Positions 3 to 63,461 of a stretch of DNA of 64,000 bases are shown piece after piece; position 1 is the first letter of the stretch; every line of letters begins with the position of its first letter. Source of the stretch: a virus. Its lineage: Duplodnaviria > Caudoviricetes. The position numbers and the translations under genes are program-made. The notes beneath the pieces were generated by a model. The model made no database searches. It saw nothing but the letters and a program-made list of their open reading frames with translations, and was not told the origin of the DNA. The stretch covers positions 14,065 to 78,064 of IMG/VR virus record IMGVR_UViG_2700989080_000001; one strand, given 5' to 3'.

Positions 3-50
3 GAGCTTGAATGGCGACTTAACGTGGTCGTGGAAGGAGACCGAGTATGA
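3..50 (+). CDS. 3' end of a gene truncated by the window (…ELEWRLNVVVEGDRV*), possibly a head-tail adaptor
   Basis: Open frame whose TGA overlaps the next ATG; the function is a guess from context. Confidence 0.4.
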   Translation, partial: ELEWRLNVVVEGDRV

Positions 51-1663
51 GTGACAAGCAGACGTGGTGCATCGTAGCTCTTCCCGAAGAAGAAAGCACT
101 GTGTGGCGGGAATCCAGCGAAAAGGTTCCGCACATGACGCTTCTCTTCTTGGGTGAACAGGATGACCCCAAGAAGGCTGAGGAGATTGCCACTTTCCTTC
201 AGCATGCAGTAAACACCAGCCTGACCAAGTTCTCGATGAGCGTCAAGGAGCGGGGTGTTCTCGGAGAAGAGGATGCCGATGTTCTATTCTTCGACCAGAA
301 GTCTTTGCCGAAGCAGCTTGTGGAATTCCGCAACTTCCTTCTGAAGGATGCGACAATTCGGTCGTGCTATGATTCGGCTTTCCAGTACCCGTCATGGACG
401 CCCCATCTCACTATGGGATATCCGAAGACGCCGGCGAAGAAGACCGACGATCATTACCCGGTTCGAACCGTGTACTTCGATCGAATCGCTTTGTGGGTCA
501 TGGATTACGATGGACCAACTTTCGATCTCGATTGGGAGCACGGAGACTACTACTCCGACCCCGAAATGGCTTCAGGAGAAATGGCAATGAGCGGTATGCC
601 GGCCCCGAGCAACTTCCGTCATCTTGGCGTGGGCGGTAAGCACACTCCTTCTCGCGATCCGCTTCAGACAGCGCTGGTTCCTGCAGCAAAGCGGGCTGAG
701 CGTTCCGCAATCGATATTGCGAATAGCGGAAGCTACATTCAGCACTATGCTTCTGGTAAGCGGTTCGACGATCCGTCCGACCCGGTTTCGCAGCGCTATA
801 TTCGAGCGAACCAGCACGCATTCCTTGAGCATCTGAACAAGGTTGCTGGCGGCACGAAGTTCGAGCAGGAGAATCGACGGTATGACATCAGCACCACGCC
901 TGACGGCGATTGGGTCTTGTCGACCATTGATCTTCTGACACATTCGGGCCTCGTCGAGACTCGTATTCGTCCCGTCACTGACGACCGCGGTCGCATTTAC
1001 AAGTACGACCTGGTTTCCGATGGCCTCGGTCAGGATGACGTTCACGGCGCCATGATGCACTACGGCATCAAGGGAATGAAGTGGGGCGTTCGTCGTAAGA
1101 GCGGTTCCGATGGAACTGTTGGCGGAAGCTCTGGCGGAACTCCTTCCAAGAGGCAGCTCAAGAAGCAGTTTCGGGAGGAAGCCAAGGCCGAAGTCGCCAA
1201 GTCCAAGCAGGACTCGAAGATTGCAAAGCTCAAGACCGACGCCCTCACCAAGGAGCAGGATCGCCGAGAGAGTTTCACTCGACCGGTCACTCCAGACGCT
1301 AGGGTTGCGGCTTCGGGTCGAAAGCGGTCTGAGAAGCACGGTACCGACGCGCTCAGCAACAAGGAGCTCAAGGACCTCGTCGAGCGAATGAATCTCGAGC
1401 AGCAGTACGCAAATCTTCAGGCTAACGGTAAGTCGAAGACTGCTCGACAGGCTGGGCGAGAGTACGTTGGCGACATCATCAAGGATGTCGGGCGAGAGCT
1501 GGCGATGGATGCGCTCAAGTTCGCCGCAACAGAAGGTGTCAAGTACGCCTTCAATCAGGGTCGAACGTCTGCTAGTACTGCTCGAGATCGTCGTCGAGCT
1601 AGCGCTAACGCTCAGCGTCTTCCGCAGCTTCAGCTCGAAGGCCGACGTCAGCTAGGTAGATAG
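47..1663 (+). CDS. 2H phosphoesterase (LigT/Acb1-like) fused to an internal HYG-tagged basic domain
   Basis: Two HxT motifs (PHMTLLF, PHLTMGY); MHYGIKGMKWG at nt 1055-1087. Confidence 0.75.
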   Translation: MSDKQTWCIVALPEEESTVWRESSEKVPHMTLLFLGEQDDPKKAEEIATFLQHAVNTSLTKFSMSVKERGVLGEEDADVLFFDQKSLPKQLVEFRNFLLKDATIRSCYDSAFQYPSWTPHLTMGYPKTPAKKTDDHYPVRTVYFDRIALWVMDYDGPTFDLDWEHGDYYSDPEMASGEMAMSGMPAPSNFRHLGVGGKHTPSRDPLQTALVPAAKRAERSAIDIANSGSYIQHYASGKRFDDPSDPVSQRYIRANQHAFLEHLNKVAGGTKFEQENRRYDISTTPDGDWVLSTIDLLTHSGLVETRIRPVTDDRGRIYKYDLVSDGLGQDDVHGAMMHYGIKGMKWGVRRKSGSDGTVGGSSGGTPSKRQLKKQFREEAKAEVAKSKQDSKIAKLKTDALTKEQDRRESFTRPVTPDARVAASGRKRSEKHGTDALSNKELKDLVERMNLEQQYANLQANGKSKTARQAGREYVGDIIKDVGRELAMDALKFAATEGVKYAFNQGRTSASTARDRRRASANAQRLPQLQLEGRRQLGR

Positions 1664-3443: not shown

Positions 3444-3584
3444 ATGTCTGATTTGGGATACTCCGCAATCAAGAGAAGCCCTGAAAAGCATCTCTTTGCT
3501 TTCGCTCTTTCGAGCCTACCCAACCCCGACGACGTTGTAATTGACGGCGACAGCAGTGAAGGAGAGATCGATGGAAACGCTTGA
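3444..3584 (+). CDS. Small hypothetical protein (46 aa)
   Basis: RBS GAAAGG before ATG; fills the gap; below ORF-track cutoff. Confidence 0.45.
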   Translation: MSDLGYSAIKRSPEKHLFAFALSSLPNPDDVVIDGDSSEGEIDGNA

Positions 3585-3942
3585 TGCTGAGGACTTCCTT
3601 GCTCACTACGGTGTTAAGGGGATGAAGTGGGGCCAGACTCGCTCCAAGAGTGATCTGGTCAAGGCTCGCGCTGCTGGTCGTCGCGAGTTCGGTTCAAATC
3701 TCAAGGATCGCTACACCAAGACCGGCAAGTATGGTCAAACGAAGATCAAGAAGACCAAGGCTGTCGGAACTGTCGCCGATATTATGCTTACCGGCGGCAT
3801 GTACACCGGAGTTCAGATTGCACGATCTGGCGGCTTTACTCGAGGACAGTCTGCAGTCATCGGCATGATCACTGGTCCTGTCGGCGCCACGGTTGCAAGC
3901 GAGATTCGAGTTCGTACTGTCACCAGCCGGGATGCTCGCTAA
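3571..3942 (+). CDS. HYG-tag protein 1 (putative internal head protein)
   Basis: AAGGAG RBS; EDFLAHYGVKGMKWG; two hydrophobic segments. Confidence 0.8.
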   Translation: METLDAEDFLAHYGVKGMKWGQTRSKSDLVKARAAGRREFGSNLKDRYTKTGKYGQTKIKKTKAVGTVADIMLTGGMYTGVQIARSGGFTRGQSAVIGMITGPVGATVASEIRVRTVTSRDAR

Positions 3943-3963: not shown

Positions 3964-4800
3964 ATGAGTAACGAAGTGGACAACTTCCTTGCTCACTACG
4001 GTGTCAAGGGAATGAAGTGGGGTGTCACAAAAGATCAACATCGCGAGTACAAAGAAGTTGCTTCTCGTGACACCACTAACATGGTCAAGCGTGCTGGTTC
4101 GACAGTGCAGATGACTCGCTATTTCTCTCAGGGCGGCACTCTGAAGAAGCAGCAGAAGTACACGAAGGATTGGTACGACAAACTCGAAGGCGGCAAGGAA
4201 TTCATCGAAAAGGGTGCTTCTCTGAATCGCGTTGTTCGAGGTGTCGATGACAGAGCCCTCGCCGGGCGCTTGTATGTCTCAAGTCTGAAGAGTGACAACG
4301 AGATGTACAAGGCTGTCATTCCTGCCGTTCAAAAGAAGTTCGCTTTTGGTCAGAAGCAGTACCACTCGGTTTACCAGGTGGAGCTCGAAACCAAGAAGCG
4401 ATTGGCGATGCCGTCTCAGAAGGAGCGTGTCGACGCCTTCATCGAAACCATTCAAACGCCTACTGGCCGAGACTGGATGAAGAAGAACGGCTACAAGCGC
4501 GAGATCGATGAGCTTAACGCCAAGGAGATGGGGCTTAAGGCATACAAGAAGTTCAACAAGTATGCCGGAGACCAGGGCTCTAAGATGAACGACGCTTACT
4601 TCAACAAACTCAAGTCTCGCGGCTATGATGCTCTCATCGATGACAACGATGCGGGCATTTGGAGTAAGAAGCCGATGATCCTGCTGTCGCCGAGTAGTAC
4701 GGTCAAAGTCAAGAGTGTTCGTCAGCTTACCGCCGACGAGATCAATCAGGCTCAGCGAAACGTTCTCAAGGACCGTGACTTCAAAGAGAGGAGGTCGTGA
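3964..4800 (+). CDS. HYG-tag protein 2, possible ADP-ribosyltransferase-fold domain
   Basis: DNFLAHYGVKGMKWG; RLYVS...GYDALIDDND domain shared with 5785..6858. Confidence 0.75.
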   Translation: MSNEVDNFLAHYGVKGMKWGVTKDQHREYKEVASRDTTNMVKRAGSTVQMTRYFSQGGTLKKQQKYTKDWYDKLEGGKEFIEKGASLNRVVRGVDDRALAGRLYVSSLKSDNEMYKAVIPAVQKKFAFGQKQYHSVYQVELETKKRLAMPSQKERVDAFIETIQTPTGRDWMKKNGYKREIDELNAKEMGLKAYKKFNKYAGDQGSKMNDAYFNKLKSRGYDALIDDNDAGIWSKKPMILLSPSSTVKVKSVRQLTADEINQAQRNVLKDRDFKERRS

Positions 4801-5783
4801 TGAGCAATAGCGCAGATGACTTCCTCGCCCACTATGGTGTCAAGGGAATGAAGTGGGGCGTAAAGCGCTCACAGGCTCAACTAGATCGAGCTGCTGGCGG
4901 TCGTCAAAATGGGAGTGGCGGAGCATCTGATTCTGCACCCAAGCAGGGGATGAGTCGTAAGAAGAAGATCGCTATCGGTGCTGGAGTTGTTGGTGGTGTA
5001 GCCCTGGTTGCTCTAGGCGCCTATGCCGTCAACAAGCAGATCGATACGAACAAACTTCGAACTCTTGGCGAGATGCGAAAGCAGGCCGAAGCAAATTTGG
5101 CCGGCAAGAAGGCTGCTCAAGCGCAGATCCAAGCGTTTGGTAAGAAGTCGAAGTGGGAGCTTGCGTCGGAACTTCCGGCAAAACCCAAAAAGTCGCCCAT
5201 GACTCAGGCCGAGTACAAAGCTCAGGCGCAGGCCAAGGTTCAGGCTCGGACAAACGAACTGATCGCCAAGTCGGGATCGAAGCCGATGGGTAAGGCGGCG
5301 CGTAGAAAGGCTGCCGAACAGCAAGCTATTCAGGAACACTTCAACAAGTTCGCCAAGAAGTCGTTCTTGGATCTCGCCACCGAACTTCCTTCCGCCCCGA
5401 AGCAGCCTAAGCTGTCTCGAAAGGAAGCGAATCGTCGCACCAACGAGGCGGTTCGAAAGGCAACTGAAACCCAGCAGATCAACAACAGGTTGAATGCTGT
5501 TCGAGGAATCCTTGACAAGTCGGGGTCGACTCCGGCACGAAAGGCGAGTTCCTCGTACACCAATCGGGACCGAAAGAGCGACACCAAGCTCTATGGTAAC
5601 GAAGGTGCTGCGAGAATTCAGAAGCGGGTTGCCAAGGGGACGCTCCTTTCCGAAGCTCGACGCAAGGAAGCCACTCGACAGTACGGCGTTAAAGCTGCAC
5701 GAGTTGGGTTGAACATCAACTCGGCAGGGCGTCGTGAGTCGAAGGACTACGAGCGTCTTCGGAAGCAAGCCGGAAGGGGTTAG
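4797..5783 (+). CDS. HYG-tag protein 3, very basic, one hydrophobic helix
   Basis: DDFLAHYGVKGMKWG; GAGGAGG RBS; internal repeat KKS..ELA.ELP..PK. Confidence 0.8.
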   Translation: MMSNSADDFLAHYGVKGMKWGVKRSQAQLDRAAGGRQNGSGGASDSAPKQGMSRKKKIAIGAGVVGGVALVALGAYAVNKQIDTNKLRTLGEMRKQAEANLAGKKAAQAQIQAFGKKSKWELASELPAKPKKSPMTQAEYKAQAQAKVQARTNELIAKSGSKPMGKAARRKAAEQQAIQEHFNKFAKKSFLDLATELPSAPKQPKLSRKEANRRTNEAVRKATETQQINNRLNAVRGILDKSGSTPARKASSSYTNRDRKSDTKLYGNEGAARIQKRVAKGTLLSEARRKEATRQYGVKAARVGLNINSAGRRESKDYERLRKQAGRG

Positions 5784-5784
5784 G

Positions 5785-6858
5785 GTGACTGTCGTTGAAG
5801 TTGACAACTTCCTAGCCCACTACGGTGTCAAAGGAATGAAGTGGGGCGTTATTCGCGACAGAGATCGTGGATCTAGCTCTAGTTCTTCCGAGCCAAAGCC
5901 TGCTGGTCGTCGACAAGTTGCTCTAGAAGCAAAGTACGTTCAGAAGGGACATTCGCTGGAAGACGCTCAGCAGAAAGCTGCCAGGCGAGCGAAGGTTCAA
6001 AAAGTTCTCTTGGTTGCTGGAGCAGTAACTCTTGCCGGCACTGCCGCTTACGTCGGACACAAAGAGTATGGAAAGCGTTTCACCGAGATCAGTCTTAAAG
6101 CCGGTACCGAACTCAAGTACATCAATGCAACAGGCCCAAACACTGATCTCAATCGACGTCTTTACACGACATTCAACGAAGCTGATACTAAAAAGTATCG
6201 AGGTATGTTGGCTAAACAGCTTCAGAAGAATAAAAGTGGGACGACGATCTACGAAACCGTTCTGACCGCCAAACAGGACATCAAAGCTCCTTCGCATAAA
6301 CAGGCTGAGCAGGTTTTCAAAGACCTCGTTAAGTCTGGAGCTATGGACGTAAAGTTCTTTGGTAGGAACCAAACGTACAAGGAATTCAACGGAGATCTTG
6401 TGCGAGGTAATACTCCAGAAGCGAAAACCTTCTACGATGCTCTCAAGAAAAAGGGTTTCAACGCTGTCTTGGATTCAAACGATCAGTTTGTTTCTGGTTA
6501 TAACACGAAACATCCGTTGATCCTCTTTAACGCTGCTTCGAGCACTGTCAAGACTGGTGAGTCAGTGGTGAACCAGAAGACTATCGATGGTTTGTATAAT
6601 CGCCAAGTGGCTGGGGTCATGGCTAGACAGTTCGCCCCTACGGTAGCTATGGGTGCGGCAGCTGTTGGTGCTCATCGATACATCGAGTCCAAGAGCAAGT
6701 ATGCGACCGTTAACAAGTACATGGCCGAACATCCGAACACGAAGCGATCGCCTGCTGAGATCTACGCGAGTCTTCAGGTGCAACCGAACGGTCTATACGA
6801 GGTTCCTGACCTTACCGCTGTAAGCAAGCCTCCGAAGAAAGGCGGTTCCAAGAAGTGA
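5785..6858 (+). CDS. HYG-tag protein 4, paralog of 3964..4800
   Basis: DNFLAHYGVKGMKWG; RLYTT...GFNAVLDSND; GTG start chosen after upstream stop. Confidence 0.75.
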   Translation: MTVVEVDNFLAHYGVKGMKWGVIRDRDRGSSSSSSEPKPAGRRQVALEAKYVQKGHSLEDAQQKAARRAKVQKVLLVAGAVTLAGTAAYVGHKEYGKRFTEISLKAGTELKYINATGPNTDLNRRLYTTFNEADTKKYRGMLAKQLQKNKSGTTIYETVLTAKQDIKAPSHKQAEQVFKDLVKSGAMDVKFFGRNQTYKEFNGDLVRGNTPEAKTFYDALKKKGFNAVLDSNDQFVSGYNTKHPLILFNAASSTVKTGESVVNQKTIDGLYNRQVAGVMARQFAPTVAMGAAAVGAHRYIESKSKYATVNKYMAEHPNTKRSPAEIYASLQVQPNGLYEVPDLTAVSKPPKKGGSKK

Positions 6859-6977
6859 AGCTCCTACTCAAGATTCTTGATGTTCTGATCGGTAACCGCC
6901 TAGATCGTCCCGAAGTTCGAGATCTCTATCTGAGGGATCATCCGGAAGAGCGTCAAAATGGGAGTAGCAATGGATGA
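6855..6977 (+). CDS. Small hypothetical protein (40 aa)
   Basis: GTGA overlap with upstream stop; fills the gap. Confidence 0.35.
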   Translation: MKLLLKILDVLIGNRLDRPEVRDLYLRDHPEERQNGSSNG

Positions 6978-7347
6978 TTCTATTGACAACTTCCTAGCTC
7001 ACTATGGCGTCAAGGGCATGAAGTGGGGTCAACGCAAGAAGCACAAGGAGTCCAAGAAAGAATACAAGGCGAGAACCAAGAAGGAACTCGCCGAGTACAA
7101 TGAGAAAAAGGCCTTCTCTATTGCTTCTCGCGCCGCGGTTGGTAAAGAGAACGTGATCGTGAAGACAAAGTTCGGCGGCGACACACACGGCAGCATTGTA
7201 ACTGGAGAACAGTTCTATCAGCAGCTTGCTAGAGGTCGCGCTTTCGATATTCGAATCACTGAGATTTACGCTACTCGTAAAGCCGAAGGCGAACAGTTCA
7301 CTCGCGCAGCTCTCTATCCTGCATACCAGAAGTCCGAACGGAGGTGA
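6970..7347 (+). CDS. HYG-tag protein 5
   Basis: GGGAG RBS; DNFLAHYGVKGMKWG. Confidence 0.8.
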   Translation: MDDSIDNFLAHYGVKGMKWGQRKKHKESKKEYKARTKKELAEYNEKKAFSIASRAAVGKENVIVKTKFGGDTHGSIVTGEQFYQQLARGRAFDIRITEIYATRKAEGEQFTRAALYPAYQKSERR

Positions 7348-7893
7348 ATGATGGACGAAGATGTTGAGGATTTTCTAGCTCACTATGGTGTCAAAGGAAT
7401 GAAGTGGGGTCAACGTAAGAACAACCTCGCCGGAGTTTCAGTCAAGACGAACCGTGATGCTCGTAAGGATGCACAGGAGTTCGCAAGAGCAAAGATGTTC
7501 TACGGAACCGGTGCTGGTAATCGACGAAAGCTCATCAAGACTACTGTCGAATCCAAGTCAAAGGATCCGAGTTACAAGGCAGCTTTCGATCATCATCTCG
7601 CCAACCAGGACATGGGGAAGCACGCTTCGAAGGCTAAGACTGAGCGGCGTCGCAAGGATGTCAGCAGCAAGACGACCAAGACGGCTCGTGGCGTTCATCG
7701 TCAGCTGACCGGAGGTTTCGGTAGCGTTTCTATGGCTTCGGCTCTTATCGCCGGCGCCTACATCGGTGCTCGAAAGACCGGTATCGATCAGGTCATCATT
7801 AACTCTGCGAAACAGAAGATGAACGACTTGTCGAGCAAGCAAAACGATAAGAAGAACGTCAACGACTGGATGAAGAAGAACGGGTTCCTCTGA
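7348..7893 (+). CDS. HYG-tag protein 6
   Basis: GGAGG RBS; EDFLAHYGVKGMKWG. Confidence 0.8.
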   Translation: MMDEDVEDFLAHYGVKGMKWGQRKNNLAGVSVKTNRDARKDAQEFARAKMFYGTGAGNRRKLIKTTVESKSKDPSYKAAFDHHLANQDMGKHASKAKTERRRKDVSSKTTKTARGVHRQLTGGFGSVSMASALIAGAYIGARKTGIDQVIINSAKQKMNDLSSKQNDKKNVNDWMKKNGFL

Positions 7894-7934: not shown

Positions 7935-9275
7935 ATGGCTAGCGTCTCTAAAAAGCTGATGCATGCTTACAACGTTTTTACCGCAGTGGATCATCGTGAA
8001 ACCTCGTCAAGCGAGTTTTACGGAATGTCTACTTACGGTAGTCGTCCAGACCGTGTGAGAACACCGAACGTGATGGCTGCACGATCGATTATCTCATCGA
8101 TCTATACTCGACTCGGAATCGATATTGCTTCTGTTCAGCTTCGACATGTTAAGTTGGACGATCAGGGTCGATTCTTGGAAGACATCAACAGCGGATTGAA
8201 CAACTGTCTCACGGTCGAGGCCAATCTCGATCAGGGTTCTCGAGACTTTCGTCAGGACATCGCTATGACACTCTGCTCCAAGGGTTATTTGGCGATCGTT
8301 CCTATCGAGACTTCGCTCAATCCGAAGATCTCCGGCTCGTATGACATTCAAACCATGCGAGTTGGCGAAATCACGGCTTGGTATCCGAAGCACGTTCGTG
8401 TCAGTCTCTATAACGAGGCTGTTGGTCGGCGCGACGAGATCGTGGTCGAAAAGAAGCACGTTGCTGTCGTAACGAACCCTCTATATTCGATCATGAATGA
8501 GCCGAACTCGACTCTTCAACGTCTCGTCAGGAAACTGAGCCTCCTTGATTCGGTGGATGAAGCGTCTGCGTCGGGGAAACTTGACATGATCATTCAGCTT
8601 CCGTATGTCGTCAAGTCCGATGCTCGAAAGAAGCAGGCGGAACAGCGACGGTCCGACCTTGAGCAGCAGCTCACGGGAAGCAAGTACGGAATCGCTTACA
8701 CGGACGGTACCGAGAAGATCACGCAGCTCAACCGTCCTGTCGAGAACAATCTCATGGGTCAGATCACATATCTCACCGGAGAGCTGTACGCGCAGCTTGG
8801 TTTGACGGCTGAGGTTATGAACGGTACTGCCGATGAGAAGACGATGCTGAACTATTGGAATCGAACCATCGAACCAATGGTCGCCTCCATCACCGAAGAG
8901 ATGCATCGCACGTTCTTGACTAAGACCGCTCGAACTCAGAGGCAAGCGGTTCGATATTTCCGAGACCCTTTCCGTCTGGTTCCCATCGAGAACATCGCTG
9001 AGATCGCGGACAAGTTCACTCGAAATGAGATCCTTACCTCTAACGAGATTCGTCAGGTGGTCGGCTTCAGGCCGGCCGGCGATCCCAAGGCTGACCAGCT
9101 AGTCAATAGCAACATGCCTCAGGCAATCACGGGTGCTTCTGGTGAAACTCCTGCTCCGTCTCAGACTCCGTCGGCCGACCCCAACGAAGAGAAGACTTCG
9201 ACGTTGGTGAATAGCGGACTGGATGCTCTGAACTCCCAGCTTGACGGTATATTTGACGACCTGGGAGGAGAATGA
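7935..9275 (+). CDS. Portal protein
   Basis: 446 aa between terminase and capsid; HK97-like C-terminus LTSNEIRQVVG; AAAGGAGG RBS. Confidence 0.88.
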   Translation: MASVSKKLMHAYNVFTAVDHRETSSSEFYGMSTYGSRPDRVRTPNVMAARSIISSIYTRLGIDIASVQLRHVKLDDQGRFLEDINSGLNNCLTVEANLDQGSRDFRQDIAMTLCSKGYLAIVPIETSLNPKISGSYDIQTMRVGEITAWYPKHVRVSLYNEAVGRRDEIVVEKKHVAVVTNPLYSIMNEPNSTLQRLVRKLSLLDSVDEASASGKLDMIIQLPYVVKSDARKKQAEQRRSDLEQQLTGSKYGIAYTDGTEKITQLNRPVENNLMGQITYLTGELYAQLGLTAEVMNGTADEKTMLNYWNRTIEPMVASITEEMHRTFLTKTARTQRQAVRYFRDPFRLVPIENIAEIADKFTRNEILTSNEIRQVVGFRPAGDPKADQLVNSNMPQAITGASGETPAPSQTPSADPNEEKTSTLVNSGLDALNSQLDGIFDDLGGE

Positions 9276-9276
9276 G

Positions 9277-9927
9277 TTGGCGTCTCGATCCGAGCTCTTC
9301 CTTGAGGCGGTGTTTCAAGATCGTCGCACTCTGATCCACGAATACGACCCCGTCAAGGCCCGCGAGTATTATTTGCGTACTCGAGAGCTCAAGGGTCGTC
9401 AGCCAGCCCAGGCCGAAGAGCCTGAGTCGGTTCGTAACGCTCGGCAAGCAGCTGCTGCGGCTGAAGAAGCTAAGCAGAAAGTTGAAGCTGAGCGTAAGTC
9501 TCGTCGACAAGAACTGAAAGCTAAACTTGCTGATTTGGAGGCTCGACTCAAAAAGTTGAACGCCGCCATCAAACAAGCTAAGGCTGCAGCGATGCGTCGA
9601 GCAGGGGTCTCTGAAGAAACCCTGAACCGAATGATCACCCAAGAGGTGAAGAGTCCCGGTAGTTCCAAAGGCATGAAAGACGAAGCCAAGGACTCGAAGG
9701 ATTCGAAAGACTCGTCCGACTCTTCTGATGACAAACCGAAAACTGCCGCGCAAAAACGAAAAGATGCCAAGGCGGCAAAAGAGCGGTATGAAGAAGAGAA
9801 AGATAAGAATCCCGAAGCTAATGACGGCGATGCTGAGCTTCAAGAACTACAGGACAAAGTCGATTCGACTGCTGAGCGAATCGAGAAACTTCAAAAGAGA
9901 GTTCAAGCCATCGCCAGGATTGGCTGA
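9277..9927 (+). CDS. Coiled-coil head-module protein (LIH|EYDPVKAREYY N-terminus)
   Basis: GGAGGAG RBS before TTG; charged coiled coil. Confidence 0.65.
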   Translation: MASRSELFLEAVFQDRRTLIHEYDPVKAREYYLRTRELKGRQPAQAEEPESVRNARQAAAAAEEAKQKVEAERKSRRQELKAKLADLEARLKKLNAAIKQAKAAAMRRAGVSEETLNRMITQEVKSPGSSKGMKDEAKDSKDSKDSSDSSDDKPKTAAQKRKDAKAAKERYEEEKDKNPEANDGDAELQELQDKVDSTAERIEKLQKRVQAIARIG

Positions 9928-10078: not shown

Positions 10079-12226
10079 ATGACCCACATGCAACCTGATT
10101 TCAGCGGGTACGCGACCAAGGCGAATCTCAGGTGCTCCGATGGTCGGACCATCCTGCCTGATGCTTTCAAGCACATGGACGGCATGCAGGTTCCTCTCGT
10201 CTGGCAGCACGCCCACAACGAACCGACCAATGTGCTCGGTCATGCCCTCCTAGAGGCCCGTGACGGAAGCATGTACTGCTACGGGTTCTTCAACGACACC
10301 GATGCCGGCAAGCAGGCAAAGGGTCTAGTCGCTCACGGCGACATCAACGCACTTTCGATTTACGCCAATAAGTTGGAAGAGCACAACAAGGCGGTCAAGC
10401 ACGGTCAGATCCGCGAAGTAAGTCTCGTGTTGGCCGGAGCAAATCCCGGAGCTTTGATCGACAACGTCAACATTGCTCATGGCGATGGGTCGATCACCAC
10501 TCTGGATGGTGAAGCCCTTATTTACACCGACGAACTGCTCGAGCTCACACACTCAGAAGAGGACAACATGACTATCGCACATGCTGAAGACGAGGATCTC
10601 ACCGTTCAGGACGTCTTCGAGACGATGAATGAGCAGCAGCAGGAAGTTGTTCATTTCCTGGTCGGAGAGGCCCTCGCTGGAGCTTCCGCAAGTCACGCCG
10701 CCGGCGATGATGAGGAAGACGACGGCAAGGACAAGACCGTTCAGGACATCTTCGAGAGCATGACCGAAGAGCAGAAGAACGTCGTCTTCTTCATGGTCGG
10801 ACAGGCCCTCGAAGAAGCCGGTAAGGGCTCCGATAAGCCTGCGGACAACAAGTCCGATGACAAGTCCGACGACAAGACCGCCAAGCACGCAGATACCTCC
10901 TCGGAAGGAAACACCATCATGAGCCACAACGTCTTCGAGCGCGCTGCCCTTTCGGCCGATGACACCAGCAAGACCCTCAGCCACTCGGAGCTCGTTGAGG
11001 CCACGTCGAGCATCTTCTCGGCCGCTGCCCGCACCGGTTCCGTCAAGGAGGCCGCTGAGGAGTACGCCCTCAAGCACGGCATCGAGGACATCGACGTCCT
11101 GTTCCCGGATGCCAAGGCTGTCACCACCACGCCTGAGTTCATCAAGCGTCGCACCGAGTGGGTTTCCGAGGTCATGAGCGCCTCGCGCCACACCCCGTTC
11201 TCGCGGATCAAGAGCCTGACGGCCAACCTGACCTTCGACGACGCCCGTGCCAAGGGCTACGTCAAGGGCAACATGAAGAAGGAAGAGTTCTTCCGGGTCG
11301 CCAAGCGAGTCACCACCCCGCAGACCGTCTACAAGAAGCAGAAGCTGGATCGGGACGATGTCCTGGACATCACCGACTTCGATGTGGTCGCGTGGCTCAA
11401 GGGTGAGATGCGCCTCATGCTCGACGAGGAGATCGCTCGCGCGGTTCTGATCGGCGACGGTCGCTCGGCTGAGGACGAGGACAAGATCTCGGAGGAGCAC
11501 ATCCGTCCGATCGCCAACGACAGCGACCTCTTCGTCACCTACGTCAACGTCGACCTGAGCGGTGGCGCTGCCGACAAGATCGTCGACGCCCTGACCCTGC
11601 AGCGTCGTCACTACCGTGGATCGGGCAACCCGACCTTCTTCACCAGCGAGACCGTTCTCGCTCAGATGCTGCTGCACAAGGATTCGCTGGGTCGTCGCAT
11701 CTACGCGACCGTCGCGGATCTCGCTGCTGCTCTGCGTGTTTCGAAGATCACCACGGTCGAGATCATGGATCAGCCGTCGGTGGACGTCGTTGGCATCATG
11801 GTCAACATGCAGGACTACACCATCGGTGCGGACAAGGGCGGCGACGTCTCGCTGTTCGACGACTTCGACATCGACTACAACCAGCACAAGTACCTCATCG
11901 AGTCCCGTCTGTCGGGCGCCCTCACGCGTCCCAAGTCGGCTCTCGTGGTCAAGGCTGTTGCCAAGTCCTCCACGCTGGTCACCCCCGAGGCTCCGGAGTG
12001 GGATGACGAGGCCAAGACCGTGACGGTTCCGACCGTTACCGGTGTCGTCTACAAGAACAAGAAGACGAACGCCACCCTGACCACGGCTTCGCCCGTCACC
12101 CTGAACGCGGGTGAAGAGCTGCACGTGATCGCCCTGCCGGCCTCGACGAGCTACTACCTGGCCTCGACCGCTGAGGACGAGTTCCTCTTCGATTACGAGG
12201 ATGGCATGCTCGGCGGCGCATTCTGA
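10079..12226 (+). CDS. Prohead protease + scaffold + major capsid protein fusion with C-terminal Ig-like domain
   Basis: HK97-type protease motifs (PLVWQH, LSI, EVSLV..GANP), acidic scaffold, capsid region with strongly biased codons. Confidence 0.9.
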   Translation: MTHMQPDFSGYATKANLRCSDGRTILPDAFKHMDGMQVPLVWQHAHNEPTNVLGHALLEARDGSMYCYGFFNDTDAGKQAKGLVAHGDINALSIYANKLEEHNKAVKHGQIREVSLVLAGANPGALIDNVNIAHGDGSITTLDGEALIYTDELLELTHSEEDNMTIAHAEDEDLTVQDVFETMNEQQQEVVHFLVGEALAGASASHAAGDDEEDDGKDKTVQDIFESMTEEQKNVVFFMVGQALEEAGKGSDKPADNKSDDKSDDKTAKHADTSSEGNTIMSHNVFERAALSADDTSKTLSHSELVEATSSIFSAAARTGSVKEAAEEYALKHGIEDIDVLFPDAKAVTTTPEFIKRRTEWVSEVMSASRHTPFSRIKSLTANLTFDDARAKGYVKGNMKKEEFFRVAKRVTTPQTVYKKQKLDRDDVLDITDFDVVAWLKGEMRLMLDEEIARAVLIGDGRSAEDEDKISEEHIRPIANDSDLFVTYVNVDLSGGAADKIVDALTLQRRHYRGSGNPTFFTSETVLAQMLLHKDSLGRRIYATVADLAAALRVSKITTVEIMDQPSVDVVGIMVNMQDYTIGADKGGDVSLFDDFDIDYNQHKYLIESRLSGALTRPKSALVVKAVAKSSTLVTPEAPEWDDEAKTVTVPTVTGVVYKNKKTNATLTTASPVTLNAGEELHVIALPASTSYYLASTAEDEFLFDYEDGMLGGAF

Positions 12227-12871: not shown

Positions 12872-13759
12872 ATGGTTGCAATTCAGTGGGACAAGTCCGG
12901 CGAGCGGCTCTACGAGACCGGCGTCGATCACGGTGTCCTCTACATCCCCGATGCACAGGGCAAGTACGAGACCGGCTATGCCTGGAACGGTCTGACCTCG
13001 ATCTCCGAGGCCCCCTCGGGTGCTGAGTCCAATCCGCAGTACGCGGACAACATCAAGTACCTGGACCTCATTTCGGCGGAGGAGTTCGGCGCCACCATCG
13101 AGGCCTTCACCTACCCCGAGGCGTTTGCTCAGTGCGACGGTACCGCTCTCATCGGCGGCATCCAGATCGCTCAGCAGGTTCGTCGTAAGTTCGGTCTTTC
13201 CTACCGGACCCTCGTCGGCAACGACCTTGTCGGTACGGACTACGGCTACAAGCTTCATCTGATCTACGGTTGCCAGGCGGCTCCGTCGGAGAAGTCGCGG
13301 TCGACGGTCAACGATTCGCCCGAGGCTGCCACGTTCAGCTGGGAGATCACGACCAGCCCGGTCGAGGTTCCCGGAATCAACCCGGTGACCAACAAGCCCT
13401 TCCGCCCCACCGCTCACCTGGTGATCGATTCGACCAAGGTGACGTCTGCGAAGCTGCAGGCGCTCGAGGAGATCCTCTACGGTACCGCCGGCGTCGATCC
13501 TCGGATGCCTTACCCGGCAGAGGTTCTGTCGATGTTCGAAGGTGACGTCATCGAGGTCAACCCGACGGCACCGACCTACAGCTCCGCGACCAAGACGATC
13601 ACCATCCCGACGACCCCCGGTGTCGTGTACAAGATCGACGGCAACCCGGTCTCGGGCAGCGTCGTCATCACCGAGGACACCGTCGTCGTTGCCGAGCCGG
13701 CTCCGGGCTACAAGTTCCCGTCGGTCACGGATGACGACTGGCTGTTCGACTACGCGTAA
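12872..13759 (+). CDS. Major tail protein with C-terminal Ig-like domain
   Basis: AWNGL, YADNIKY, EAFTYP motifs; high-expression codon bias. Confidence 0.88.
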   Translation: MVAIQWDKSGERLYETGVDHGVLYIPDAQGKYETGYAWNGLTSISEAPSGAESNPQYADNIKYLDLISAEEFGATIEAFTYPEAFAQCDGTALIGGIQIAQQVRRKFGLSYRTLVGNDLVGTDYGYKLHLIYGCQAAPSEKSRSTVNDSPEAATFSWEITTSPVEVPGINPVTNKPFRPTAHLVIDSTKVTSAKLQALEEILYGTAGVDPRMPYPAEVLSMFEGDVIEVNPTAPTYSSATKTITIPTTPGVVYKIDGNPVSGSVVITEDTVVVAEPAPGYKFPSVTDDDWLFDYA

Positions 13760-13790: not shown

Positions 13791-14345
13791 ATGCTCCAGC
13801 TCGACGTCGTTATGAAAGAGGACTTCAATGACGACACTCAAGAGTTCATCATCACTACATGGCCGTTGCGGCTGGAGCACTCCTTAGTTTCATTGTCAAA
13901 ATGGGAGTCTAAGTACGAGAAACCATTCATCTCTACTGACAAGTCTGAGGAAGAGATTCTGGATTATGTGCTGATGATGGACTTGAGTGACGATACTCCC
14001 CCGGAGGTTTATCACAACATCAGCAATGAGCAGTTTCTCCAGATCAATGAACACATCAACGCCAAGAAGACGGCCACCTGGTTCAGTGACAACAAGAAGA
14101 ACAAGAAATCTCGTCAGATCGTCACCAGTGAGCTGATTTATTACTGGATGACATCGTATGAAATCCCTTGGGTTGCTGAGACTTGGCATCTGAATCGGTT
14201 GTTCACATTGATCGAAGTCTTCAATGCTGAAAGAAGTAGCGAACAGAAGACAAACAAACCAACTCGTTCCGAGGCAGAACGTCTTGCGGCTGAGCGAAGG
14301 GCTCTGAATGAGCAGCGAAGGAAAGAGTTGGGGACCAGTGGCTAA
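13791..14345 (+). CDS. Tail assembly chaperone-like protein
   Basis: Position after major tail; LSKWES and WHLNRL motifs. Confidence 0.55.
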   Translation: MLQLDVVMKEDFNDDTQEFIITTWPLRLEHSLVSLSKWESKYEKPFISTDKSEEEILDYVLMMDLSDDTPPEVYHNISNEQFLQINEHINAKKTATWFSDNKKNKKSRQIVTSELIYYWMTSYEIPWVAETWHLNRLFTLIEVFNAERSSEQKTNKPTRSEAERLAAERRALNEQRRKELGTSG

Positions 14346-60740: not shown

Positions 60741-63461
60741 GTGCTGATCAACGAAGATGACTACTTGGCACACTACGGTATTCTGCGTCGTTCGGGCAGG
60801 TATCCTTGGGGATCTGGTGGAACTCCCGAACAGAACCATCGCTCGTTCATGGGCATGGTAGGAGCTTTGAAGGCTGAAGGAATGTCTGATGCCGACATCG
60901 CTAAGGGTTTCGGTATCTCCACTCGAGACTATCTCGCTCTCAAGTCGATCGCTGTCAACGAGATCAAGGCAGCCAACCGCTCTCGTGCGGAACTTCTTCG
61001 TGCTACCGGCATGTCTCACAAAGCAATCGCTGAGGAGATGGGCCTTGCTGGTGAGTCTTCGGTTCGGGCTTTGTTGGCTCCCGGTGCTGCCATGCGAGCT
61101 AATCAGAATCAAGCCGTTGCCGATCTTCTCAAGGATCAGATCAAAGATGGCGGGTATCTCGACATTGGGGCCGGCAACGAGCTCTATGTTGGCATGTCTC
61201 GCACTCAGTTCGACACCGTGGTAGCAGGTCTTCGTAACGAAGGCTATGTGGTTCATCCGGTTCAGGTCGATCAGGTTGGAACCAACACCAAGACTCTGAT
61301 CAAGGTTCTGGCTCCTGAAGGAACCGAGTACAAGGACATCGTCACTAATCCGGAAGCGATCAAGTCTATCGCAGTCAAGCTGAAGGATGGCGAGATCGAA
61401 CACGTCCGTCCTCCTGAGATGCTGGATTCTAAGCGAGTCAAGGTCGTCTACGATGAGGATGGAGGTTCTCAGGCTGATGGTACGATGTACATTCGTCCGG
61501 GAGTCAGTGATCTCGATCTTGGTGGTGCACAGTATGCTCAGGTACGAATTGCTGTCGATGGCACGCACTACCTCAAGGGAATGGCTGTCTACAAGAATGA
61601 CCTTCCTCCTGGTGTAGATGTTGTCTTCAACACCAACAAGACCAACACCGGCAACAAGCTCGATGCTTTGAAGAAGATGAACCGTCTTCCCGAGCTCGAT
61701 GCAGATGGCAAGCCTGTCAAGGATGCTAAGGGTGATGTCGTCTTCTCTGACAAGATCGACATGTCGAATCCTTTCGGTGCAACCATCAAGCCTGGTGGTC
61801 AGCGTGGGGTTCTGAATGTTGTGAATGAGGAAGGCGACTGGAGTAAGTGGTCTAAGAACCTTCCTTCGCAGATGCTTTCCAAGCAGCAGCCTACGATTGC
61901 CAAGGAACAGCTGGACCGACTCTTCAACGACAAGAACTCCGAGCTCAATGAGATCATGGCTCTGACCAACCCTGCGGTCAAGAAGAAGTTGCTTCAGTCC
62001 TATGCCGATGGTGTGGATGCTGATGCTGTACATCTTCAGGCAGCACACATGCCTCGACAGGCTACACAGGTAATCCTTCCGATTCCTGTGGACAAGATGC
62101 GAGACACAGAGATCTATGCGCCCAACTTCCGTGATGGAGAACGGGTTGCTCTGGTTCGCTTCCCTCATGGTGGAACCTTCGAGATCCCTGAGCTCACAGT
62201 CAACAACCGCAATCCTGAAGCTAGGAAACTTCTAGGGACCAATGCTAAGGATGCCGTCGGCATCAATGCCCGTGTTGCTGAGCGTCTGTCTGGTGCGGAC
62301 TTCGATGGCGATACTGTCCTTGTGATTCCCAATGATCGTGGGAAGATCAAGAGCTCGCCTGCTCTCGAGGGTCTTAAGGACTTCAATCCTCAGAAGAGGT
62401 ACCCTGCTTACGAGGGTATGAAGCCTATGACTGCTAAGCAGAAGCAGCAGGAGATGGGTAGTGTCTCCAACCTCATCGCCGACATGACGATCAAGGGAGC
62501 CACCAACTCTGAGCTCGCCGCTGCTGTCCGTCACTCTATGGTTGTGATTGATGCTGAGAAACATAAGCTCAATTACAAACAGTCTGCGATTGACAACAAC
62601 ATCGTGGGTCTCAAGAAGAAGTACCAGGCTCGACCTGATGGTTCTCCTGGTGGTGCTGCAACGCTGATCTCTCGGAGTACTTCTGAGGTTCGTGTCAACG
62701 AGCGCAAGATCGGGTACAAGATCAACCCCGATACTGGTGAGAAGATCTTCACCGAGACAGGTAAGGGCTACACCAAGACTAAGGTCAACCCTAAGACTGG
62801 TGTGGTTACGGAGAAGTTCATCCCCCGTACTCAGAAGTCTACGAAGGGTGCTGAAGCTAAGGATGCCCATGAGCTTTCTTCGGGTACTCGAATGGAACAG
62901 ATCTATGCTGATCATTCGAATCGTCTGAAGGCTTTGGGTAACTCTGCTCGGAAGACTTTGATGGCTACGAAGTCGACGCCCTATTCCGACTCTGCTCGTA
63001 AGGTGTACGCCTCTGAAGTAAAGGCACTGGATGCGAAGCTTAACATCGCACTCAAGAATGCACCCCGAGAAAGACAAGCCCAGCTCATAGCCAATGCCAC
63101 CATCAAACAGAAGCGTGATGCTAATCCAGGGATGGAGCATGACGAACTGAAGAAGGTGAAAGCTAAAGCATTGGTTACTGCTCGTGCTCGAACAGGCGCA
63201 AGCAAAGAGCTGATCAACATCACTGACAGTGAGTGGGAGGCCATCCAAGCTGGTGCAGTGAGCACATCCAAGCTCACTAAGATCCTTGACAACACCAACC
63301 TTGATCGAGTCAAGGAGCTGGCCACACCTCGCAAGAACACAGTGATGACTGACCTCAAACAGCAGCGTGCTCGTCAGCTTCTCGCAAGCGGGCGCACTCA
63401 GTCTGAGGTTGCCGACATCCTTGGCGTTCCCCTATCCACCCTCTCGTCTAGCTTGCAGTAA
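60741..63461 (+). CDS. Putative single-chain double-psi-beta-barrel RNA polymerase with HYG tag and HTH domains
   Basis: YLAHYG; QVR....YLKGM; LVRFP; LSGADFDGD; HSMVVIDAEK; two N-terminal and one C-terminal HTH. Confidence 0.75.
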   Translation: MLINEDDYLAHYGILRRSGRYPWGSGGTPEQNHRSFMGMVGALKAEGMSDADIAKGFGISTRDYLALKSIAVNEIKAANRSRAELLRATGMSHKAIAEEMGLAGESSVRALLAPGAAMRANQNQAVADLLKDQIKDGGYLDIGAGNELYVGMSRTQFDTVVAGLRNEGYVVHPVQVDQVGTNTKTLIKVLAPEGTEYKDIVTNPEAIKSIAVKLKDGEIEHVRPPEMLDSKRVKVVYDEDGGSQADGTMYIRPGVSDLDLGGAQYAQVRIAVDGTHYLKGMAVYKNDLPPGVDVVFNTNKTNTGNKLDALKKMNRLPELDADGKPVKDAKGDVVFSDKIDMSNPFGATIKPGGQRGVLNVVNEEGDWSKWSKNLPSQMLSKQQPTIAKEQLDRLFNDKNSELNEIMALTNPAVKKKLLQSYADGVDADAVHLQAAHMPRQATQVILPIPVDKMRDTEIYAPNFRDGERVALVRFPHGGTFEIPELTVNNRNPEARKLLGTNAKDAVGINARVAERLSGADFDGDTVLVIPNDRGKIKSSPALEGLKDFNPQKRYPAYEGMKPMTAKQKQQEMGSVSNLIADMTIKGATNSELAAAVRHSMVVIDAEKHKLNYKQSAIDNNIVGLKKKYQARPDGSPGGAATLISRSTSEVRVNERKIGYKINPDTGEKIFTETGKGYTKTKVNPKTGVVTEKFIPRTQKSTKGAEAKDAHELSSGTRMEQIYADHSNRLKALGNSARKTLMATKSTPYSDSARKVYASEVKALDAKLNIALKNAPRERQAQLIANATIKQKRDANPGMEHDELKKVKAKALVTARARTGASKELINITDSEWEAIQAGAVSTSKLTKILDNTNLDRVKELATPRKNTVMTDLKQQRARQLLASGRTQSEVADILGVPLSTLSSSLQ

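Follow-up and report, generated by a model that had tools for sequence, protein, structure and literature searches.

How does a major capsid protein that is made in one polypeptide with its own protease and scaffold reach its mature form? The question is raised by a plus-strand fusion gene of a ReqiPepy6-like Rhodococcus phage, from whose 78,064-base record (IMG/VR IMGVR_UViG_2700989080_000001) a window of 64,000 nucleotides, positions 14,065 to 78,064, was analysed. An initial annotation of this window had listed seven places between the protease and capsid domains of the encoded protein where His is followed by a small residue, and had proposed a maturation protease that cuts after His. All seven were found in the fusion open reading frame (ORF) (Table 1). 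We consider that hydrophobic-x-His sites are cut sites, with His at P1, in a self-processing head polyprotein. This reading draws on residue conservation and on analogy with characterised head proteases, and we give it a probability of about 0.7. All computational tests made here agreed with the annotation's three claims, on cutting after His, on the mature capsid start and on the tag as partly a cut site, and none refuted them.

Candidate cleavage sites in the fusion protein

The fusion protein matches phrog_3270 over its entire length (profile match, E 2.3e-269). It is 88% identical, full length, to the 'head maturation protease' of ReqiPepy6 (gp025) and 68-70% identical, again full length, to the 'major capsid and protease fusion protein' of Gordonia phages. 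The family is a large one, with at least 7999 proteins at E <= 1e-10 in one collection and 1693 matches at E <= 0.001 in a library of 50%-identity representatives; 238 of the 267 phage records matching the fusion protein do so at 80% query coverage or more. At the N-terminus, residues 8-128 match Peptidase_S78 (PF04586, HK97-type prohead serine protease) with 29.2 bits against a cut-off of 21 (E 1.2e-6), and the same domain is assigned to many homologues. H44 and S93, which we take to be the equivalents of the HK97 gp4 catalytic pair, are invariant across a 140-sequence alignment, and H44 is kept in 150 of 151 representatives chosen at a pairwise identity of 50% or less. Towards the C-terminus, residues 414-625 match Phage_capsid (PF05065; 34.7 bits, cut-off 24.2).

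The linker between protease and capsid was taken as residues 131-343. It holds nine of the protein's 23 His and the capsid part holds six. Gly, Ser or Ala directly follows seven of the nine linker His and none of the six capsid His. In 20,000 composition-preserving shuffles of the linker, H[GSA] was expected 2.44 times against the seven observed (P=0.002), and [LIVM]xH[ASG] 0.46 times against five observed (P=5e-5); neither occurs in the capsid part. The remaining two linker His were rejected as cut sites. One of them (VVH192↓F) lies within a confidently predicted helix and is Tyr in most representatives. The other (MSH283↓N) is a loose fit and has R or K in its place in 45 of the 151 representatives, and unfused capsid genes start two residues before it.

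The initial annotation had also remarked that two of the sites precede a duplicated helix, and this is visible in the DNA itself: the scaffold unit is present as two direct repeats of 98 nt (10586-10683 and 10721-10818), 72% identical and 135 nt apart, with a His site ahead of each helix unit. Starts of this unit were sought by regular expression in the 151 representatives, 54 of which gave no match. A His lies within 25 residues upstream of 94 of the 108 starts found, and in 78 of these 94 it is part of a hydrophobic-x-His-small site.

Table 1. Features of the fusion gene and of other genes discussed, with positions in the window. Arrows mark the candidate bond.
Feature	Position	Strand	Details
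Protease/scaffold/major capsid fusion gene	10079..12226	+	715 aa, 78.2 kDa; ORF list, phrog_3270
Protease domain	10079..10480	+	residues 1-134, 14.6 kDa, ends at NIAH134↓G
Candidate site NIAH134↓G	His codon 10478-10480	+	
Acidic scaffold linker	10481..10918	+	residues 135-280; candidate cuts after H158, H168, H206, H270
Candidate site ELTH158↓S	His codon from 10550	+	
Candidate site TIAH168↓A	His codon from 10580	+	
Duplicated helix-hairpin scaffold unit	10586..10818	+	helices 176-199 and 221-249
Candidate site SASH206↓A	His codon from 10694	+	
Candidate site TAKH270↓A	His codon from 10886	+	
Capsid propeptide	10919..11077	+	M281-H333; MSHNVFE motif, TLSH302↓S, two helices, ALKH333↓G
Candidate site TLSH302↓S	His codon from 10982	+	
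Candidate site ALKH333↓G	His codon from 11075	+	
Predicted mature major capsid protein	11078..12223	+	G334-F715, 382 aa, 42.2 kDa
Six consecutive tagged ORFs between terminase and portal	3541-3942, 3964-4800, 4797-5783, 5734-6858, 6958-7347, 7348-7893	+	
538-aa 2H/LigT-like protein	47..1663	+	phosphoesterase 26-151, internal tag AMMH338↓YGIKGMKWG, basic tail
Portal protein	7935..9275	+	PF04860; N-terminus MASVSKKLMH10↓A (7935-7964)
216-aa charged coiled-coil protein	9277..9927	+	between portal and capsid genes; ..RRTLIH21↓EYDPVKAREYY; phrog_12541
906-aa protein	60741..63461	+	variant leader MLINEDDYLAH11↓YGILRRSG; DUF7211 14.1 bits, below cut-off
Met-preceded scaffold units without upstream His			homologues P0141, P0143, P0164, P0171, P0175, P0185, P0197, P0202

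Conservation of the linker histidines

The strongest evidence for reading these positions as cut sites is the conservation of the linker His. Among 121 close homologues H134, H302 and H333 are each kept in all 121, H158 in 115, H206 in 113 and H270 in 81. The 151 representatives are mutually related, so counts pooled over them are not independent events; they keep H134 in 150 cases, H333 in 147, G334 in 145, H302 in 133 and H158 in 126. The corresponding counts for H168 (65/151), H206 (15/151) and H270 (60/151) come from length-variable stretches whose alignment columns are untrustworthy. The lone row lacking H134 is a fragment without the protease. All four rows lacking H333 carry a hydrophobic-x-His no more than eight residues away, ahead of a conserved N-arm that reads G-I-x-x-I-x-x-L-F-P. 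At non-His positions of the linker the commonest residue averages 27%, and the His columns rank with the most conserved of positions 126-345. Moreover, the residue following H134 varies (Ser in 69 representatives, Gly in 43, Ala in 21) while the His stays, which argues that the His itself is under selection.

Every His of the 151 linkers (n=1095) was then pooled and compared with those of the capsid parts (n=543). The linker pool gives the motif [LIVM]-x-H↓[A/S/G]-[D/E]. Leu, Ile, Val or Met occupies P3 in 85%, with Leu enriched 8.1-fold; Ala, Ser or Gly follows the His at P1' in 64%, against a background of 22%; and P2' is Asp in 37% (2.9-fold enriched) or Glu in 15%, together 52%. Capsid His are followed by Gly, Ser or Ala in 15%, against 19% background. 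Over all linkers [LIVM]xH[ASG] was observed 624 times against 45.6 +/- 6.0 in shuffles, and over all capsid parts 17 times against 26.4. This contrast, within the same proteins, is clear despite the kinship of the representatives. The same features recur in Lactococcus phage 1706 orf10, which is 34% identical: L, I, V or M stands at P3 of all seven linker His, Ala or Gly follows five of the seven, and the last site reads VLKH↓AITNIDVLFPN. The initial proposal of a His-specific pattern is therefore upheld in that the linker His are the best-conserved residues of the linker and are flanked by protease-like subsites, the placing of His at P1 being by analogy.

Structural model and proposed processing

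The AlphaFold model of the fusion protein has a mean predicted local distance difference test score (pLDDT) of 84.6. Its protease domain scores 93-98 and closes with a strand, residues 126-133, that ends at H134. Confidence is low between and beside the two scaffold hairpins (Table 1), at 145-164, 202-216 and 253-296, and two propeptide helices (302-319 and 322-333) are followed by the capsid fold. Each of the candidate sites falls where model elements meet, be it a strand end, a helix end or a stretch with pLDDT below 50; such stretches span 145-164, 202-216 and 253-285. Structure look-ups of the whole model returned capsid matches, covering residues 331-629. An HK97 fold was recovered (VIA-align), with Z 17.9 and a root mean square deviation of 3.9 over 271 residues aligned to the gene transfer agent (GTA) capsid 6tb9_A5, and with Z 15.8-16.5 for HK97 capsids (16.5 to 1ohg_A). 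A search of the whole fusion protein against the sequences of solved structures gave no match at E <= 0.01.

These alignments bear on where the mature capsid protein would begin. Residues 104..383 of HK97 Head I (2fs3_A) align to model residues 333..628, 167..457 of the T5 capsid (8zvi_G) to 334..628, 89..385 of the GTA capsid (6tb9) to 335..628 and 101..396 of the HFTV1 capsid to 334..626. Only the first and last aligned residues are reported and one HK97 entry aligns from model residue 320, so that the start of mature HK97 gp5, residue 104, falls at model residues 320-333 and a mature start at G334 (GIEDIDVLFPDAK) is plausible rather than exact. A mature capsid beginning at GIEDID had been suggested from the outset, and the suggestion is consistent both with the junction His, kept in 147 of 151 representatives, and with the first residues of processed capsids, which align to model residues 333-335.

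In the scheme that we propose, an S78 protease, an acidic helix-hairpin scaffold, a short propeptide and an HK97-fold capsid protein would be made as one self-processing polyprotein. The prohead shell would assemble first, and the protease would then cut after His in [L/I/V/M]-x-His↓[Ala/Ser/Gly]-[Asp/Glu], namely after H134, H158, H168, H206, H270, H302 and H333. The cut after H134 would free the protease, the scaffold and propeptide would be chopped into pieces of 1-7 kDa able to exit the shell, and the mature capsid protein from G334 would be left. The predicted products are a protease of 14.6 kDa, a capsid protein of 42.2 kDa and, from linker and propeptide, six pieces of 1.1-7.0 kDa. The same protease would also trim the N-terminal leaders of several other head-module proteins, described below. 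T4 gp21 recognises L/I-x-E, and by analogy with the T4 and giant-phage proteases the invariant residue two positions after the hydrophobic one would be P1. Cleavage itself, its position directly after His and the packaging of tagged proteins would all follow this precedent.

Leaders on other head-module proteins

The initial annotation had pointed to the same pattern as FLAH↓Y in a tag, as LIH↓E in the 9277..9927 protein and as IQH↓Y, LTH↓S and MMH↓Y in the 2H protein. All were located: FLAH↓Y in six ORFs between 3541 and 7893, TLIH↓E in ORF 9277..9927, and IQH233↓Y, LTH299↓S and MMH338↓Y in ORF 47..1663. A regular-expression scan showed that the six ORFs open with ..[DE][DN]FLAH↓YGVKGMKWG, the leader comprising 11-28 residues ahead of the His when counted from the first ATG, GTG or TTG. 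They score 50.8-56.1 bits against PF23847 (DUF7211; cut-off 27). A scan of the 78,064-base genome gave seven DUF7211 matches over the cut-off (40.7-59.7 bits) and one below it (14.1 bits). For one DUF7211 protein, nine homologues among 25 candidates carry the His at residue 9-18.

Other proteins of the head module carry related leaders. In the 9277-type protein a hydrophobic-x-His ahead of EYDP/YS is kept in all five phages compared, and the copy in Arthrobacter phage Circum reads DFLEH↓Y, resembling a DUF7211 leader. The portal's leader His is present in four of six phages (the window phage, ReqiPepy6, OlympicHelado and 1706), and cleavage of this 10-residue N-terminal leader by the fusion protease is possible. 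ORF 60741..63461 bears a variant leader; it has a weak PF05183 match to RNA-dependent RNA polymerase (E 0.0021, below cut-off) and C-terminal helix-turn-helix matches, and is a possible virion RNA polymerase. Counting the six tagged ORFs, the 9277 protein, the portal and ORF 60741, a hydrophobic-x-His lies at residues 10-29 of each, and these leader His share the P3/P1 pattern of the 1095 pooled linker sites. By analogy the DUF7211-tagged, 9277 and portal proteins are probably head-internal and trimmed by the fusion protease.

In the 2H protein (ORF 47..1663; PF13563, 29.2 bits) the tag is internal, with PF23847 scoring 35.2 bits at residues 330-352. H233, H299 and H338 all lie outside the 2H domain, whose own H-x-T motifs at H29 and H120 are presumably catalytic and not cut sites. 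The tail beyond the tag is very basic and 200 residues long. In Gordonia phage Mossy the homologue carries the annotation 'RNA ligase' and its tag lies at residue 358; internal tags are found in two larger proteins of that phage.

The most telling evidence from the tags for a shared signal comes from the fusion family itself. In four of 270 homologues (P0122, P0227, P0243 and P0247) a complete DUF7211 module is inserted in the linker. Its opening, ..LAH↓YGVKGMKWG, stands at the position of an ordinary His site in other members, and more His sites follow it. The replacement of an ordinary site by the L-A-H opening of a tag agrees with the earlier suggestion that the tag is in part a cleavage site, and the hydrophobic-x-His common to linker sites and tags fits a common processing signal. 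The only hint that tagged proteins reside within the virion is an indirect one: on the strength of its similarity to 1706 gp07, the ReqiPepy6 record labels gp019 a 'virion structural protein'.

A broader proposal, to which we would give slightly less than even odds, is that one portable hydrophobic-x-His↓small code frees the protease, dissolves a modular scaffold, and loads and trims head cargo throughout the family. Such a code may extend over phages of actinobacteria and Firmicutes, with cargo marked by DUF7211 or related leaders, and that cargo may include enzymes such as the 2H phosphoesterase and the probable virion RNA polymerase. On this proposal the scaffold could also take in complete cargo modules, each lodged between a pair of His sites, as in the four homologues with an inserted DUF7211 module.

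Unfused capsids and a possible internal start

Searching for shorter homologues gave many capsid-only proteins. In many of the 32 examined, all from contigs above about 5 kb, the sequence begins M-K-H-N-V-F, the equivalent of M281. These unfused capsids retain LSH↓S and LAH↓G-I within a propeptide of about 50 residues. It follows that the two best-conserved sites, equivalent to H302 and H333, are part of the capsid unit and remain in place where the protease is not fused to it.

In the fusion gene itself, the M281 ATG (window 10895-10921, ATG at 10919) follows a Shine-Dalgarno-like GGAAGG at a distance of 9-12 nt in five of six phages; the sixth, phage 1706, has a TTG here, preceded by AAAGGAG. 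The conserved GGAAGG and ATG make possible a second product, M281-F715, of 47.9 kDa and without protease and scaffold. Such a product would make it less of a problem that each capsid subunit comes with a protease, and would leave the need for the H302 and H333 cuts standing. Further internal starts may exist in other phages: of the 14 scaffold units without a His in the 25 upstream residues, eight were examined (Table 1), and in each case a Met lies 8-17 residues ahead.

Alternative explanations

Several observations weigh against the cut-site reading. Two of the seven sites, SASH206 and TAKH270, have Ala and not a bulky L, I, V or M at P3; both are poorly kept in distant relatives, and H270 is replaced by Gln in 28 of the 121 close homologues. 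The portal's leader His is Gln or Asn in two of six phages (Mossy and Circum). At the tags P1' is Tyr or Glu, residues that are rare there among linker sites. Three conserved copies of [LIVM]xH[AG] lie within the folded protease (H55, H86 and H108), where they may be structural or catalytic, so the motif by itself is not proof of cleavage. The scissile bond, finally, is assigned by analogy only.

This last point allows that the motif is recognised by the head protease and the chain cut elsewhere, His being P1', P2 or a docking residue near the cut. A scissile bond is not placeable from sequence conservation alone, and the following residues are constrained too (A/S/G in 64%, then Asp in 37%), with Gly334 nearly matching His333 in conservation (145 against 147 of 151). 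However, His is the sole near-invariant residue and its flanks vary, the solved mature capsid starts align to residues 333-335, and where H333 is displaced the variant His sits 1-5 residues before, not after, the G-I-x-x-I of the N-arm. Assemblin-like head proteases, moreover, cut directly after the specificity residue of a hydrophobic/small-x-residue pattern (A-X-E, and likewise in T4; PMC5694885). We regard a displaced cut as unlikely. Slightly less probable again is that the conserved His are not cut at all and serve the scaffold through metal- or pH-dependent contacts, with DUF7211 a binding peptide and the capsid protein made mainly from the M281 start. The H-x-D and H-small-D spacing could bind metal, copies of the motif are found in the folded protease as well, and both the ribosome-binding-like sequences before M281 (GGAAGG with ATG in five of six phages, AAAGGAG with TTG in 1706) and the unfused homologues that begin at its equivalent speak for an internal start. 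Yet an M281 product still carries H302 and H333 ahead of the HK97 N-arm, and all relatives have kept the S78 protease intact, H44 and S93 being invariant, which implies substrates. Strands that dock in a protease groove typically show such a hydrophobic preference at P3 (here Leu 8.1-fold), the candidate sites fall at module borders in segments of low predicted order, and the mature capsid part has no excess of the motif (17 observed against 26 expected). The thought that the pattern merely reflects chance in a linker rich in Ala, Ser, Gly, Asp and Glu (A 11.7%, S 8.9%, G 6.1%) is already contradicted by the shuffles, both of the query (P=0.002 and P=5e-5) and of the 151 linkers (624 against 45.6 +/- 6.0), and by the His columns being among the most conserved of the region; its probability is negligible. 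Cleavage directly after His is the reading that we retain.

Comparison with known systems

Head proteases of tailed phages and herpesviruses have a common fold and differ in the residue after which they cut. The protease-linker-capsid order seen here is shared by fusions of actinobacteriophages (Gordonia cluster DJ, Arthrobacter AM/AU, Streptomyces), by ReqiPepy6 gp025 and by 1706 orf10. The window's protein is structurally no different from this named family, to which only the His reading of the linker is added. Klyczek et al. 2017 call the fusion 'an unusual feature' of clusters AM/AU (PMC5513430), and the available portion of that article mentions the fusion and no cut sites. A full-text literature search, with most subscription journals outside its scope, found no His cleavage code for phage maturation proteases. 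The fusion itself is known, and the His cleavage code looks unpublished.

The closest parallel is with T4 and the giant phages. According to PMC5694885, their head proteases cut after Glu, those of the giant phages (phiKZ gp175 and SPN3US gp245) in A/S/G-x-E, and are released by autocleavage on their own C-terminal side. The same source describes a single motif serving scaffold destruction, capsid propeptides and the leaders of internal proteins, with several sites per propeptide; the substrates of T4 gp21 are given as the scaffold gp22, the propeptides of gp23 and gp24, and the capsid-targeting leaders of IPI-III and Alt. As with T4 gp21, several head-module proteins here share a short leader ending in the scaffold/capsid site motif. 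The T4 and giant-phage enzymes differ in using Glu, in belonging to S77/S80 and in that their cleavage is known, whereas the present system has His, an S78 protease and a single polypeptide, and its cleavage is predicted. The patterns described above would fit processing and leader trimming of the T4 type, carried out by an S78 protease that uses His in place of Glu.

HK97 gp4 and gp5 resemble the present protein in the PF04586 family of the protease, in the capsid fold and in an N-terminal assembly domain that is fused to the capsid and removed. In HK97, however, the protease is a separate gene, the delta domain is without repeated hairpins flanked by His sites, and the mature N-terminus of gp5 is made by a cut after Lys. 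DUF7211 (PF23847) is assigned no function in Pfam, and no paper on it was found in the same full-text search; we read it here as a putative His-cut leader followed by a conserved YGVKGMKWG peptide.

To our knowledge, proteases that prefer His at P1 are rare, and a His-specific S78 protease would, if confirmed, be a new specificity among head proteases. The motif would predict the mature capsid N-terminus, the fragment sizes and the likely head-internal proteins of hundreds of sequenced actinobacteriophages, whose capsid genes are currently annotated only as 'fusion'. If the leader directs loading and trimming, it would give DUF7211 a function and offer a simple handle for bringing foreign proteins into phage capsids. 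Were the portable code true, it would amount to a natural, predictable protein-packing system for siphophage heads.

Other features of the gene

The capsid part ends in a C-terminal beta domain (about residues 630-715). Its last 75 or so residues (11966-12223) are 37% identical (E 3e-5) to the C-terminus (13556-13756) of the major tail protein encoded at 12872..13759, and both proteins finish in (F/W)LFDY. One small beta domain appears to decorate both the head and the tail tube. Many capsid homologues stop ahead of this domain, at around residue 625-630. No family match over the cut-off was obtained for either of two antisense ORFs, 10553..12124 and 10741..11253, and both were taken as shadow ORFs of a GC-rich gene. 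At the 5′ end, the majority of fusion homologues align from the second Met (MQPDF..), three residues past the ATG used here (10079-10090), and the copy of this protein in the sequence collection (P0002) begins there and is 712 aa long.

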